A stretch of DNA of 32,854 nucleotides from Robiginitomaculum sp. GTDB taxonomy: Bacteria > Pseudomonadota > Alphaproteobacteria > Caulobacterales > Maricaulaceae. The translations under genes were made by a program, and so were the position numbers. Location: NCBI GenBank assembly GCA_021647805.1, contig JAKITZ010000001.1:1-32854 (forward strand), written 5' to 3'. This document shows, piece by piece, positions 1,498-30,294 of the stretch. The notes beneath the pieces were generated by a model. It ran no database searches, was not told the origin of the DNA, and saw only the letters and a list, made by a program, of their open reading frames with translations. Every line of letters begins with the position of its first letter. The first letter of the stretch is position 1.

Positions 1498-3054
1498 TTA
1501 AGAAACCGTCACTTTCGAGTTTAAAATTGCACCATTTGCCGTATCGCTTGCTTGCCCGGTTCTGCGGCGCAACCCCAAGCTTTCGGCAATATGCATGCGC
1601 CGTACAGCGGTTACGCCTTCAATGTCAGCAATGGTTCTGGCGGTACGTAGAACTCGATGATAACCACGGGCGGTTAATTGCAAATGTTCTGCAGCCTTTA
1701 ACAATAATTGCCGCCCGGCTTCGTCGGGTCTAGCCACGTGATCAAGCGATGCAGTAGAAATTTCAGCATTGGTTATTCCGTTTGTTTCTTTCTCCCGCGA
1801 TAATTGTATATCTCTGGCCAGCTTTACTCTAGCCGCAACCTCTTTTGTGCCCTCAGATGATGGCGGTAATGCCAGATCAGCTGCGGTAACTGCAGGAACA
1901 TCAATTTGTAAATCCATTCGATCCATTAACGGCCCTGATATTCTTGCTTGATAGTCACTGACGCATCTTGGTCCTCGCCGACAGGCATAACCGTCATTAC
2001 CGCCTGAGCCGCACCTGCAGGGATTCATTGCTGCGATTAGCTGAAACCTTGCCGGATAAGTGATATGGGCATTGGCTCTGGCAACACTAATGCTTCCAGT
2101 TTCCAATGGCTGGCGTAAACTATCCAAAACCTGCGGTGAAAACTCTGGAAACTCGTCCAAAAACAATACTCCTCGATGCGCCAAACTGGCCTCTCCGGGT
2201 TTGGCTTTGTGCCCACCACCAACCAATGCTGCCATTGAGGCGCTATGATGGGGTGATCTAAATGGACGTGACCTGGTTAATTGTCCCCTTTCCAAAAGTC
2301 CTGCCAGAGAATGTACCATCGATACTTCGAGTAATTCACGCGAAGAAAGTGGCGGTAACAGCCCGGGCAATCTGGCGGCCAGCATTGATTTACCAGAGCC
2401 GGGTGGCCCGATCATAAGTAAATTATGCCCACCAGCAGCAGCGATTTCCAACGCTCGTTTTGCCAGTTCCTGCCCACGAACGTCTGATATATCCGCAATT
2501 GCCGGCTCTTTAGCCAATTCTCCGGGTTTTGGGCTTGGCAAAACCGCTTTGCCTTTTATGTGGTTTACCAGCTCAATCAGGCTAGCCGGCGCAAGAATAT
2601 CCATTTCACCAGCCCATGCAGCTTCGGGGCCATTTGCTATTGGGCAAATAAGCCCAAGATCGGAGCTGTTTGCTGCCATTGCCGCTGGTAAAGCACCGTT
2701 TACTGGCGCTATTTGGCCGTTTAATGACAACTCGCCGATCGCTGCAAACCGATCAAAAGCATCTTCGGGTAACACGCCGATCGCCATCATCAGCGCCAAA
2801 GCTATTGGCAAATCGTAATGCGAGCCTTCTTTGGGTTGATCAGCGGGAGCCAAATTAACCACCAAGCGTTTGCCCGGCAGAGCCAAACCAATGGCCGCAA
2901 ATGCGGCTCTTACCCGCTCCCGGCTTTCGGCAACAGCTTTGTCACCCAAACCAACTATTGAGAAACTGGGCAGGCCGGAAACAATTTGCACCTGCACATC
3001 AACCTCACGCGCCTCAACGCCATCAAATGCAAATGTAGTAATTCTGGTTGCCAT
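1498..3054 (-). CDS. comM: YifB/ComM family Mg-chelatase-like AAA+ ATPase
   Basis: 518 aa. The N-terminus has a Lon-protease-like S5 fold (VDVQVQI..GLPSFSIVGL.D.AV.ESRERV). Walker A is GPPGSGKSM, followed by VLFLDEFPEF and a C-terminal ARGYHRVLRTARTIADIEG, all typical of this family. Confidence 0.9.
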   Translation of the reverse strand: MATRITTFAFDGVEAREVDVQVQIVSGLPSFSIVGLGDKAVAESRERVRAAFAAIGLALPGKRLVVNLAPADQPKEGSHYDLPIALALMMAIGVLPEDAFDRFAAIGELSLNGQIAPVNGALPAAMAANSSDLGLICPIANGPEAAWAGEMDILAPASLIELVNHIKGKAVLPSPKPGELAKEPAIADISDVRGQELAKRALEIAAAGGHNLLMIGPPGSGKSMLAARLPGLLPPLSSRELLEVSMVHSLAGLLERGQLTRSRPFRSPHHSASMAALVGGGHKAKPGEASLAHRGVLFLDEFPEFSPQVLDSLRQPLETGSISVARANAHITYPARFQLIAAMNPCRCGSGGNDGYACRRGPRCVSDYQARISGPLMDRMDLQIDVPAVTAADLALPPSSEGTKEVAARVKLARDIQLSREKETNGITNAEISTASLDHVARPDEAGRQLLLKAAEHLQLTARGYHRVLRTARTIADIEGVTAVRRMHIAESLGLRRRTGQASDTANGAILNSKVTVS

Positions 3055-4097: not shown

Positions 4098-4964
4098 TTA
4101 CAATGCTGCTGCCAGCTCGGAATTAACCTGAGTTAAGTTCTCATCAAACAGTTCTGCCCAAGCTTCAAAGCCCTTCGCTCGTCTTGCGCCTTGTGGATAC
4201 AAAACACCCCGGGAAGCATTAACCACCACACCCTCACCATTTACCGTAGCCGCCAAAGCGTCTTTTGCGCTAGCGCCCTGCGCTCCGAAACCCGGAACCA
4301 AAAACGGACAGTTTGGTAAAATATTTCGCAAAAACTTTGCTTCATTGGGTGCGGTTGCGCCAACCACCACCATCAATGACGACCATTTGTCGTCTCCGGT
4401 TTGTAGATCTCTGGCAAAGGGAGCCAATTTCTCGGCCACACATTCAAATACTGTTTTTCCGCTTACTTGTAATTCCTGAAAGTCGGCAGCGCCGGGGTTT
4501 GAAGTGCGAACTAAAACAATTACGCCCTTATTGTTCTCTTTGGCTAAAGAAAAAAACGGCTCCAAAGTTTCTATACCCATATAAGGATTTAAGGTAATTG
4601 CATCAACATGTAGCCAAGCCTCAGCACCCAAATACCCTTGGGCATAACCTTCGGCGGTCGAACCAATATCACCACGCTTGGCATCAAGCAAAACCAGCAG
4701 ACCAGCACTTTTGGCAGCAGATGCTAGTTCCGCCAACAGTTCCAAACCTGCTGGCCCGTAGCGTTCAAACAAAGCAATTTGCGGCTTTATTATTCCGCAT
4801 TTACCTTCTATGCGCTGTAGAACCTCGAGAAAGAAAGCTTTGATCGCCGGTAGGCCAGTGCCAAATATTTCAGGGATACGATTCGGATGCGGATCAAACC
4901 CGACACATAATGGCCCGTATTTCCGAACTGAATCGGTTAGTTTATCGCCAAAAGATAAGTTCAT
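4098..4964 (-). CDS. pyrF: Orotidine 5'-phosphate decarboxylase, type 2
   Basis: 288 aa. Motifs GPLCVGFDPH, LLDAKRGDIGSTAEGYA and ITLNPYMG are typical of the long-form PyrF. Confidence 0.88.
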   Translation of the reverse strand: MNLSFGDKLTDSVRKYGPLCVGFDPHPNRIPEIFGTGLPAIKAFFLEVLQRIEGKCGIIKPQIALFERYGPAGLELLAELASAAKSAGLLVLLDAKRGDIGSTAEGYAQGYLGAEAWLHVDAITLNPYMGIETLEPFFSLAKENNKGVIVLVRTSNPGAADFQELQVSGKTVFECVAEKLAPFARDLQTGDDKWSSLMVVVGATAPNEAKFLRNILPNCPFLVPGFGAQGASAKDALAATVNGEGVVVNASRGVLYPQGARRAKGFEAWAELFDENLTQVNSELAAAL

Positions 4965-28082: not shown

Positions 28083-28928
28083 GTGGCGGTGAGAGTGGCT
28101 ACTTATGCTTATCACAGCAATCCAGCTTATCTTGGTGCGCTTTATTCGGTAACCAATGGCAATGTAACTTACCTGCACAAGGATCATCTCGGTTCGGCAA
28201 GCACGGGTACGATTGGCAATGGAGTTAACGCAGGCAACATTGCGTGGAACGAACAATACACACCATTTGGCGAGACTATCCTTAACCCGGCGGCAAATGA
28301 TAACCTTGATGGATTTACCGGACATATCAAGGACAAAGCCACCGGCCTGAACTACATGCAGGCGCGTTATTACGATCCGGCACTGGGTAGGTTCCTAAGC
28401 ATTGATCCGGTAGAGTTTAGCGCGGAAAGACCGGGAATGTTCAATCGTTATACTTATACATACAACGATCCAATAAACTTTACTGACCCAACGGGTATGG
28501 TCGGTGGTTGCGACAGCTGCTGGACGGACATGTATAATTCTGGGATGTCTGCTGAGAGTGCTACGATTGCTGAAGCTGGTTTTCGCCCATATAGTGAAGC
28601 GTTTGCAAAAGGCACTTTGATTGGTGCAACAATGACACCTATTGGACGGGGTGTGTCAGTAGGTATAGGTATTGCAACTAGAATTCTAACGAAAAAAGCA
28701 CTGACAACATCGCAGAAAAAAGCAGTTCGAAGCATGAAGAAGAATATAAAAGAGCATAAAGCTAGAATCAAATCAGAGAGGAAGAACCCTACTGTTAAGC
28801 CTGAAATGGTTGGTAAAACTACCAAGAAACAGCAGAAGCAACAACGTAAAACGCGAGAAAACAAACACAAACGTGATATAAAAGACTGGAAGAAACAAAT
28901 TAAAGAAATCAAGAAAGAAGCGCAATGA
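28083..28928 (+). CDS. Orphan Rhs C-terminal module: end of the RHS repeat-associated core (to DPTGM, nt 28499) fused to an unrecognised 142-aa C-terminal (toxin) domain
   Basis: ...NGNVTYLHKDHLGSAS...YTPFGE...DGFTGHIKDKATGLNYMQARYYDPALGRFLSIDPVEF....FNRYTYTYNDPINFTDPTGM is the conserved Rhs core end (YYDPxxGRF...DPxG). The variable tail that follows is VGGCDSCWTDMYNSG...GTLIGATMTPIGRGVSVGIGIATRIL...K/Q/R-rich. There is no N-terminal Rhs shell, PAAR or VgrG. The GTG start is nominal, and the frame is open from 28038. Confidence 0.8.
   Translation: MAVRVATYAYHSNPAYLGALYSVTNGNVTYLHKDHLGSASTGTIGNGVNAGNIAWNEQYTPFGETILNPAANDNLDGFTGHIKDKATGLNYMQARYYDPALGRFLSIDPVEFSAERPGMFNRYTYTYNDPINFTDPTGMVGGCDSCWTDMYNSGMSAESATIAEAGFRPYSEAFAKGTLIGATMTPIGRGVSVGIGIATRILTKKALTTSQKKAVRSMKKNIKEHKARIKSERKNPTVKPEMVGKTTKKQQKQQRKTRENKHKRDIKDWKKQIKEIKKEAQ
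28084..28098. repeat. 15-bp duplicate of the tRNA-Ser 3' end (att-like direct repeat; partner at 30204-30218)
   Basis: tggcggtgagagtgg is identical at both sites. The second copy is the reverse complement of the last 15 nt of the tRNA, including CCA. The repeat coincides with the left boundary of the Rhs-derived material. Confidence 0.55.
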
Positions 28929-29407
28929 GTTCTGGTTTAAATCAAGAAGCATATGAAGGGCTTTGTGGAAAATTCACCAAGCTTGAAAATGTCACTAGCA
29001 TGGAGTTTAGAACAACTTCTCCATCTTTGGCGTTAATCCATCTTCAAAACAAAGTAGATGACACTATGTTTGAAAAAGCTGTCATACACTTACTCGATAA
29101 CAAAGTGGAATATTTTTGCCTATCTGGCGCAGACGCTTCAAGCTTGCATGATGCTGTTGATGATACCATCATTGATGGCGGGTATGAAAAGAGGGGTTTT
29201 TTTAGAGACCTCTTTAGACCTAAAAACATACTTACCAGTTTTCACGTTGACGAAGGTATGAGTGATATACTCAACATGATAGAATTTACCGCTAGATATA
29301 AAAAGCTGAACCGGATCATAAATGTAATTTACGACCAACCTTCACCTGCAATAGATTATTTGAAAAATGTTTTGAAAAAAAATGATAGGTATTCACCCAG
29401 ACCTTAA
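28925..29407 (+). CDS. Candidate cognate immunity protein (hypothetical, 160 aa)
   Basis: The ATG overlaps the toxin stop (gcgcaATGAgt), and the same strand and AT-rich composition continue from the toxin tail. This is the standard position for Rhs/CDI immunity genes. I recognise no family motif. Confidence 0.55.
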   Translation: MSSGLNQEAYEGLCGKFTKLENVTSMEFRTTSPSLALIHLQNKVDDTMFEKAVIHLLDNKVEYFCLSGADASSLHDAVDDTIIDGGYEKRGFFRDLFRPKNILTSFHVDEGMSDILNMIEFTARYKKLNRIINVIYDQPSPAIDYLKNVLKKNDRYSPRP

Positions 29408-29614
29408 ACGCTAGGCTGCAACCTTTACACACCCGTACTGCCAAGCCGGGCGGATCAGTGGCACTTGATTATACCTATGCTTATGATGCTCGTGGTAAAG
29501 TCATCAGCATTACCGATGCAGTAACTTCGGCCAACAATCGGGTATATGCTTATGATCAATTGGGTCGGTTAACTACTGCCGCTGGGCCATGGGGTGCGGG
29601 TAGCTTTGGTTATG

Positions 29615-29691
29615 CTTCGTAGGTGGTTGGCCAACGGTCAAATAATTGATCCGGGGGATCAAATATAACCGAAGAAGGCCACGGCAGTGGC
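29615..29691 (+). mobile_element. 77-nt hairpin-rich mini-insertion, copy A (non-autonomous; no TIRs; subterminal palindromes)
   Basis: cttcgtaggtggttggccaacggtcaaataattgatccgggggatcaaatataaccgaagaaggccacggcagtggc is 67/77 identical to copy B by hand alignment. It contains palindromes gttgg/ccaac, a long hairpin at 29642-29666, and gccac-ggca-gtggc. Confidence 0.65.
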
Positions 29692-29857
29692 TTGGTAATA
29701 TCCGTACCAAGACGCTTGGTTCGCGCAATATCATCAACACTTACAACAATGCCACTAATATGGTTACGCAGACCGCAGACAGTGTCAAAGGCACTCGTGC
29801 CATAAGCCATGATGCCCGTGGTAATGTTATCTCGCTTGGCGCACAGAACTTCACTTA

Positions 29858-29934
29858 CTTCGTAGTTGGTTGACCAACGGTCAAATATTCAGTCCGGGGG
29901 ACTGAATATAACCGAAGAAGGCCACTGCAGTGGC
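29858..29934 (+). mobile_element. 77-nt hairpin-rich mini-insertion, copy B
   Basis: cttcgtagttggttgaccaacggtcaaatattcagtccgggggactgaatataaccgaagaaggccactgcagtggc. The long hairpin at 29885-29909 is a perfect 11-bp stem. Three of its base pairs differ from copy A on both strands. Confidence 0.65.
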
Positions 29935-30203
29935 GTCGGATCAACCGGTATTGATCAGCGGCTCGGCCAGTGGTAGTTATCTGTATGATGGCAATCGTAA
30001 GCGGGTGAGAAGCGTGGTAAATGGCAAGACTATTTATAACGTTTATGATGCAAGTGGCACGTTGATCCATGTGGACGATACCAGCACAGCGAAGCAAACA
30101 GACTATATCGGCAAGATCGCTCGGATAACCAATGGCAATGTAACGTATTTGCATAAAGATCATCTTGGTTCGGCGAGTTCTGGTACCACCAGCACCGTAG
30201 CAA

Positions 30204-30294
30204 TGGCGGTGAGAGTGGGATTCGAACCCACGGTACGCTATTAACGCACACACGCTTTCCAAGCGTGCGCCTTCGACCACTCGGCCACCTCACC
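30204..30294 (-). tRNA. tRNA-Ser (anticodon GGA), type II with a long variable arm and encoded CCA
   Basis: The reverse complement is GGTGAGGTGGCCGAGTGGTCGAAGGCGCACGCTTGGAAAGCGTGTGTGCGTTAATAGCGTACCGTGGGTTCGAATCCCACTCTCACCGCCA. The acceptor pairs GGTGAGG/TCTCACC, the anticodon stem is CACGC/GCGTG with loop TTGGAAA, the variable arm is GTGCG...CGTAC, and the T arm is GTGGG-TTCGAAT-CCCAC. Confidence 0.93.

Follow-up and report, generated by a model that had tools for sequence, protein, structure and literature searches.

Small structured repeats such as repetitive extragenic palindromes (REPs), miniature inverted-repeat transposable elements (MITEs) and Rickettsia palindromic elements (RPEs) shape bacterial genomes, and the mode of movement is not known for most of their families. 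REPs, together with BIMEs and REPINs (the repeats of the REP-associated tyrosine transposases, RAYTs), are short, multicopy, mostly extragenic, hairpin-defined and non-autonomous, and leave no target duplication; each REP consists of one imperfect palindrome, 20-40 nt long, with a conserved GT(A/G)G at its head. Insertion of IS200/IS605 elements is seamless and takes place 3' of a fixed tetra- or pentanucleotide. RPEs (about 100-150 nt) can land in protein genes, typically in frame, and Correia/ERIC-type MITEs are likewise small structured repeats able to land in genes. In a 32,854-nt stretch of DNA from Robiginitomaculum sp. (GenBank assembly GCA_021647805.1, contig JAKITZ010000001.1, positions 1 to 32,854 of the forward strand; hereafter the window), a Rhs (YD-repeat) core fragment is interrupted by two 77-nt copies of a structured element, copy A at 29615-29691 and copy B at 29858-29934, both on the plus strand. 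The element inserts in either orientation with precise ends, has no terminal inverted repeats, makes no target duplication and removes 4-6 bp of its target. It belongs among the small structured non-autonomous repeats and has two unusual properties, the loss of about 5 bp of target and an enrichment in toxin loci. Copies A and B probably inserted independently of each other and represent a selfish mobile element that is non-autonomous.

The insertions can be read directly where filled and empty sites stand side by side. The Rhs fragment of locus L118 (assembly GCA_027071965.1), 72% identical to the window protein once both copies are taken out, is empty at both window sites. At site A it reads TTATG-ATGCAC-TTGGTAAT where the window has TTATG-[77 nt]-TTGGTAAT, ATGCAC being replaced, and at site B CCTA-CGACAT-GTCTGATC where the window has CTTA-[77 nt]-GTCGGATC, CGACAT being replaced; each window copy has taken the place of 6 nt (5 if one base is shared). 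The comparison also runs the other way, since L118 carries a copy of its own (2965-3038) after ..TACGATG, at a point where the window is uninterrupted (TATGATG-CAAGTGG). Among other Rhs genes, L103 and L120 have an antisense copy after ..NAAGN at a site that is empty in L119, where TTATC, lost in L103, is still present; L119 in turn has AATTA replaced by an antisense copy, inside the conserved motif GLNYMQARYYDP (GLNYMQ). In L003 an antisense copy lies 18 nt into a relaxase-like open reading frame (ORF) that is intact in L001, with TGAA replaced, and in L006 a LysM toxin gene, intact in L069, is interrupted by an antisense copy that is in frame and free of stops. Target loss came to 4-6 bp at the five sites compared. 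The ends are precise across filled and empty sites, and the 5' flank stops at a defined point each time (..TATG, ..CTTA, ..GCCA, ..CATG, and ..ATAA in L003, for which the empty homologue L001 has ..AAAA). No flanking direct repeats were present at the copies examined, and the two ends, CTTCG.. and ..GTGGC, are unrelated as inverted repeats. A classical MITE was rejected on these two grounds, and in both respects the element differs from Correia/ERIC-type MITEs, which have terminal inverted repeats and target duplications. The sequence-only reading, made from the two window copies, had proposed just such a structured mobile mini-element without inverted repeats or duplication, and the family and its filled and empty sites support it. 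It had also pointed to TTAC and TTATGC as possible targets, which does not hold family-wide: among the 5' flanks of 59 non-redundant copies, a preference for purine or G at positions -1 to -3 was the sole signal, with no fixed word.

Deleting 29616-29692 and 29859-29935 does give a single YD-repeat ORF (225 aa), as that reading had found. The meaning attached to this frame-exact length did not survive the comparison with uninterrupted Rhs homologues, which confirmed the insertions as real and are also two codons longer at each junction (FTYDALGNI against FGY--AGNI in the repaired window protein at A, AYDMSDQP against TY--SDQP at B). The frame is restored by accident, because 77-6 = 71 is 2 mod 3. 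The frame-exact length had raised, as a speculation, removal at the RNA level, which belongs to a broader reading in which the element would act in cis as RNA (an intron-like element, a ribozyme or a regulatory RNA), the Rhs message remaining readable. The compact, covarying fold with conserved loop nucleotides described below would suit such a role, as would the stop-free, in-frame copy in the LysM toxin gene of L006 and the sense copies found in an rRNA spacer. We nevertheless consider it scarcely credible. Genes are interrupted antisense in L003, L006, L103, L119 and L120, and a rough ORF-based count of orientation relative to genes gives 17 sense and 21 antisense copies, without bias; antisense insertion and the absence of an orientation bias together exclude an intron. 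A self-splicing intron was also rejected on the grounds that removal of the 77 nt leaves the Rhs protein two conserved residues short at each site, and, at 63-79 nt, the element is much shorter than any known self-splicing intron. The Rhs fragment of the window lacks both a start and its own toxin tip, and Rfam gave no match over 29560-29990 even at E<=10.

Most of what can be said about the element comes from its homologues. A scan of one genome per GTDB species with an exact 19-mer of the element returned five matches, three of them due to chance; the two true ones are full homologous copies, in a Caulobacterales metagenome-assembled genome (MAG; L001) and an alphaproteobacterial MAG (L003), each of which holds further, more diverged copies. 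Viral contigs added one locus (L006). A metagenome scan for the 3' hairpin together with CRAAG at 40-68 nt yielded 109 stretches, mostly family members, from soil, rhizosphere, marine and freshwater samples. From these, 62 distinct full-length copies were aligned (alignment A1), and a covariance model built from A1 (R1) finds about 90 matches above 50 bits in the collected loci, plus weaker, diverged copies; the search for further copies beyond the window, which the sequence-only reading had recommended, thus succeeded. Judged from these sequences the family is widespread, and the members seen to date come mostly from DNA that looks alphaproteobacterial; besides the assembly of L118 (below and above), it is carried by GCA_015491555.1 and by the MAGs of CALFVT01 and JBPOEZ01.

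All of these copies, 63-79 nt long, have a five-helix fold in common. From 5' to 3' it runs through the 5' strand of P1 (CUU[C/U]), G-N-A, the 5' strand of P2, an optional P3, P4, the 3' strand of P2, a second G-N-A, the 3' strand of P1 ([G/A]AAG) and P5. P1 is a 4-bp closing helix, CUUC/GAAG, and its register is fixed because CUUC:GAAG (51 copies) covaries with CUUU:AAAG (9 copies). The closing helix cttcg/cgaag suggested earlier was therefore right as a helix and wrong in its register: the pairing is CTTC/GAAG and adjoins the 3' hairpin. The two G-N-A stretches form a symmetric internal loop between P1 and P2, which has 2-3 bp. P3 is variable, forming in most copies from unrelated sequences and often as a GCGNAGC-type mini-hairpin, and is missing in the 62-63-nt variants; the GCGNAGC motif characterises DNA mini-hairpins of very high stability. 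P4 is an A/U-rich 9-bp hairpin, usually capped by UCC-NGN-GGA (TCC-NGN-GGA as DNA), and P5 is the terminal hairpin GCCAC-GGCA-GUGGC (GCCAC-GGCA-GTGGC as DNA). The conserved blocks in A1 are CTTYG, TCCNGNGGA and AAGGCCACGGCAGTGGC, and the 3' end is the most conserved part. A GTAG near the 5' end, which had been taken as reminiscent of REPs, is really G-N-A-G with a free second base: in A1, G5 is invariant, A7 and G8 predominate, and position 6 may be T, G, C or A. The element also differs from REPs in having five helices and 63-79 nt rather than one short palindrome, in inserting into coding sequence as well, and in having no RAYT gene linked to the family. One Rhs-inserted copy (L119, 634-710) has GATAT-TGT-ATATC instead of the TCC-NGN-GGA cap; either the cap may be dispensable for insertion or this copy has decayed.

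Both window copies have this architecture, with R1 scores of 78.5 bits for A and 76.1 bits for B. According to A1, copy A pairs 29615-29618 with 29674-29677 (P1), 29622-29623 with 29669-29670 (P2), 29627-29632 with 29636-29641 (P3), 29644-29652 with 29656-29664 (P4, with one A-A mismatch) and 29678-29682 with 29687-29691 (P5), the G-N-A loops lying at 29619-29621 and 29671-29673. Copy B has no mismatch in P4 and has lost one pair of P2, through a T at element position 9. The coordinates, the shared strand and the identity of 67/77 given by the earlier reading were borne out by the alignment, the differences lying at element positions 9, 16, 31, 33, 34, 35, 45, 46, 47 and 69, with eight of the ten placed in helices. 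So were its three fully compensated pairs of the central hairpin, at 33/47, 34/46 and 35/45 of P4, and the A-A mismatch at 31/49 that becomes T-A in copy B. Position 16 changes a G.U pair to A-U in P3, and position 69 is in a loop. The left palindrome, given earlier as gttgg/ccaac, is better drawn as TTG[G/A]CC-AAC-GGTCAA, positions 13-18 with 22-27. Compared with shuffled controls, the two copies have fold z-scores of -4.4 and -4.3 as RNA and of -4.5 and -6.7 with DNA parameters, and a degenerate core pattern matches the window twice, at the two copies, against an expectation of 0 (100 shuffles). Two other origins were rejected. A coding repeat is ruled out as the identity of the 77-mer by a stop codon in copy A, in the frame that stays open in other family copies, and by the hairpin covariation; a segmental duplication relating A to B was dismissed since their flanks are unrelated Rhs core positions and their P4 stems come from different sublineages. 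The element resembles RPEs in being a small structured repeat able to land in protein genes, as in L006, where the copy is in frame and open; the window copies differ from them in bearing stops and shifting the frame.

That the fold is under selection, first argued from two copies, is borne out far more strongly by 62 homologues. Across A1, standard pairs occupy 98.9% of the cells, against 87% in column shuffles, and double-change cells number 147, against 38; in none of 500 shuffles was any observed covariation measure attained. Sliding the partners by 1-3 columns lowers pairing to 36-51% of cells. RNAalifold recovers P1, P2, P4 and P5 from A1, folding with DNA parameters reproduces the family structure, and P5 covaries in diverged copies (e.g. 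GCCCC/GGGGU in L001, 2461-2537).

How might such an element move? The most likely reading, in our view, is that it acts as single-stranded DNA: the fold, rather than the sequence ends, would be the recognition signal, and the folded strand would be read by an enzyme acting in trans, its gene lying elsewhere in the genome. This reading draws on insertion in either orientation, the covarying structure, the DNA mini-hairpin motifs and the fold obtained with DNA parameters. The leading candidate enzyme would be an HUH-type nuclease (a Y1 transposase or a relaxase-like protein), cutting and rejoining at the element ends. In this respect the element is like the palindrome-associated transposable elements (PATEs) of IS200/IS605, which lack inverted repeats and target duplication and in which folded single-strand ends are plausibly the recognition signal; it differs in having no fixed word common to its 5' flanks and in removing 4-6 bp of target. 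Since the window holds neither a transposase nor a reverse transcriptase in its 32.8 kb, the copies are non-autonomous there.

Several points weigh against this reading. No mobilising enzyme was identified in an analysis that covered the window and a few neighbouring ORFs of other loci, with a few kb available around each copy. Y1/HUH single-strand transposition, as in IS608 and ISDra2, inserts seamlessly beside a fixed short word, and a target loss of about 5 bp is unlike it. In the 62 sequences, G.U and A.C mismatches number about 4 and 5 in P4 and 8 and 0 in P1/P2, mixed counts that point neither clearly to nor clearly away from strand- or RNA-specific selection. The search patterns fixed the 3' hairpin sequence, and so the invariance of P5 in A1 was imposed by them and is partly an artefact of ascertainment. 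The enrichment in toxin loci, finally, is a count made without a control sample. The filing under IS200/IS605 or REP/RAYT elements favoured by the sequence-only reading has in any case to be given up: there is no fixed target word and no conserved GTAG, 4-6 bp of target are lost, and the check for a Y1 transposase, run over the window and a few neighbouring ORFs of other loci, saw none.

The lost target bases would be accommodated if the element were retro-mobile: a reverse transcriptase would recognise the conserved 3' hairpin of a structured transcript, and the cDNA would be integrated at staggered nicks; target-primed integration with the strands cut in a "deleting" polarity would remove a few target bases, consistent with the 4-6 bp missing at five sites. 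The strong conservation of the 3' end, the tolerance of G.U pairs in P1/P2 and the 5'-truncated units that follow full units in L051 and L059 point the same way. We regard this as unlikely, however. The 5' ends of full-length copies are precise, one copy is truncated at its 3' end (L025, 11624-11686), the 3'-end conservation is partly imposed by the search patterns, and no reverse transcriptase was seen in the window or in the few scanned neighbouring ORFs of other loci. To our knowledge, no SINE-like (short interspersed nuclear element-like) system exists in bacteria.

The genomic context raises a different possibility. When the neighbours of all copies were clustered, Rhs formed the largest cluster, with seven independent loci; adding the Rhs genes of L118, L119 and L120 and the LysM-Ntox50 genes of L006 and L069, polymorphic-toxin loci make up at least 12 of the copy-bearing loci. 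Such loci also hold every known member of the subfamily whose P2 is GGT/ACC, both window copies among them. The GC-rich subfamilies are found in intergenic mosaics, beside genes that show no obvious connection with toxins, and once in a 16S-23S spacer; greedy ORF calls are unreliable in these GC-rich loci, which makes the context statistics rough, and Pfam was mostly empty for ten neighbours in GC-rich loci. Copies occur singly, in tandem (L066, L104, L051/L059) or as inverted doublets (L020, L079, L097, L065), arrangements that resemble the singletons, clusters and doublets of REPs. In L001, inverted copies at 2461-2537 (+) and 4483-4553 (-) flank a toxin-immunity pair.

Such arrangements could be read as a functional site, either an oriT-like nick substrate of a relaxase or an attC-like site bounding or shuffling polymorphic-toxin/immunity cassettes. 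The flanked pair of L001, the two or three copies found at the start of a relaxase-like gene in L001, L003 and L022, and the frequency of Rhs or LysM-Ntox50 loci all speak for it. The element also has much in common with attC sites: a similar size, recognition as a folded strand, conservation of structure above sequence, and cassette-like toxin/immunity neighbours. It differs in having no R''/R' boxes (RYYYAAC / GTTRRRY) and in occurring as single copies inside genes, and neither an integron integrase nor a regular cassette array was seen in the copy-bearing loci. The window copies are separated by 166 nt of Rhs core rather than by a cassette, the L003 copy disrupts the relaxase-like gene itself, most GC-rich copies (including those of the 16S-23S spacer) lie near genes unrelated to toxins or conjugation as far as is evident, and no recombinase or relaxase recurs among the clustered neighbours. 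A functional site is thus quite unlikely. On the single-stranded DNA reading, the enrichment in toxin loci would reflect the junk DNA that can be tolerated in them and co-transfer on integrative elements, not a role that the element plays there. We know of no described bacterial transposase family that produces a swap of about 5 bp, and it is conceivable, if doubtful, that the family represents a new class, in which about 5 bp of target are exchanged for a precisely ended, folded unit of 63-79 nt that preferentially colonises polymorphic-toxin (Rhs, LysM-Ntox) loci on integrative elements, where recombination between copies could truncate, join and reshuffle toxin modules.

The family is apparently undescribed. 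Rfam 15 returned tRNA as its only gathering-threshold match in the window and rRNA and tRNA matches alone in 12 other copy-bearing loci, and BLASTN of the region matched nothing among plasmids, phages and 5,426 E. coli genomes. In a full-text search, no paper contained the conserved 15-mers in either orientation, whether as DNA or as RNA, and none of the element's 8-mers is in the REP survey of Di Nocera (2013). Literature searches by keyword on Rhs with REPs or MITEs and on the rhizobial RIME and Sm-repeats turned up nothing matching, although a rhizobial intergenic repeat shown only in figures would escape them and may be identical. With its precise ends, well-supported covarying fold and several filled/empty pairs, the family provides clean material for the study of how small repeats move, and the reproducible and odd loss of about 5 bp constrains the enzyme to be sought. 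Its concentration in polymorphic-toxin loci makes it a candidate for part of their nature as "rearrangement hot spots". Used in annotation, a covariance model would reveal that many apparent frameshifts and "orphan" toxin fragments are insertions of the element.

The host locus in the window is a 2.1-kb islet without an integrase, comprising a Rhs toxin tip, an immunity-like ORF and the Rhs core fragment. Its right border is the 3' end of tRNA-Ser(GGA) (30204-30294, minus strand), and its left border is a 15-nt direct repeat of that 3' end, TGGCGGTGAGAGTGG, at 28084-28098 (+), the second copy lying at 30204-30218; the islet looks like the remnant of a tRNA-integrated island. All of its genes are on the plus strand. 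The C-terminal Rhs piece (28083-28928; ..DHLGSAS..NPAANDN..GFTGH..YYDP..) ends in an uncharacterised toxin tip with no Pfam match and is followed by the immunity-like ORF (28925-29407), which has a weak DUF7684 match, below the curated cut-off. The start-less core fragment begins directly after the stop codon, downstream of this ORF, and is now in three pieces: 29413-29614, 29692-29857 (the 166 nt between the two copies) and 29935-30203, the last running through ..NGNVTYLHKDHLGSASSGT.. until cut off by the 3' end of the tRNA gene. The repaired ORF has the homologues P0001 (72% identity) and P0002 (57%), which contain RHS_repeat and TEN_YD-shell Pfam domains. The sequence indicates that the interrupted Rhs gene was already dead before the insertions, and in such a decaying, start-less fragment they would have cost the cell nothing. 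A 61-nt stretch encoding ..NGNVTYLHKDHLGSAS.. is common to both Rhs pieces at 84% identity (28150-28210 and 30126-30186) and might allow the toxin-bearing piece to recombine with the core fragment. The remaining window is housekeeping (a branched-chain keto-acid dehydrogenase operon, def-fmt, truA, rmuC, recR, infC, grpE-hrcA-rph, a TonB-dependent receptor and msrA), and its order of rph, hrcA and grpE suggests an alphaproteobacterium.

Several loci elsewhere deserve mention. L001 (2403-5269), L003 (946-3153) and L022 are related integrative elements of alphaproteobacterial MAGs, in which a Rhs toxin-immunity module is followed by the element copies, situated either a short way upstream of the relaxase-like gene or within its 5' end; we take this gene to be VirD2/DUF3363-like from its N-terminal pattern, Pfam having found nothing in the 149-aa fragment. 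L003 has an apparent deletion remnant (TCG) at a site filled in L001, L022 and L047. In several organisms, orphan Rhs ORFs open with a short conserved ..AANDN segment (GCGGCGAATGATAA in DNA), continue with unrelated "junk" and then enter the Rhs core (L001 2403-2460, L003 985-1035, L022 865-810; also P0004, P0008 and L060); in L001 the "junk" is a diverged copy of the element. Orphan Rhs fragments that seemed to start at the window junctions were considered as evidence of a hot spot and set aside, since P0003 merely begins at a conserved Met and the homology of L120 reaches further upstream. In Rhs loci the element has other mobile DNA beside it: an IS110-family transposase gene lies 250 nt from a copy (L103, 1742-2734), an IS3-type transposase between Rhs orphans (L060, 363-1462) and an IS5-like (DUF4096) remnant near the element (L118, 1920-2260). 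The sense copies of the 16S-23S spacer (L051, 7608-9562; also L059) start directly after the CCA end of a tRNA, a full unit being followed by 5'-truncated units joined by TTGGCAC. In GC-rich soil contigs (L066, 1-820; also L032, L086 and L115) the element is part of a larger repeat mosaic, in which a CCCC-TTGA/GCGG-GGGG hairpin precedes each copy; L066 has three copies within about 500 nt downstream of a putative arabinofuranosidase gene.
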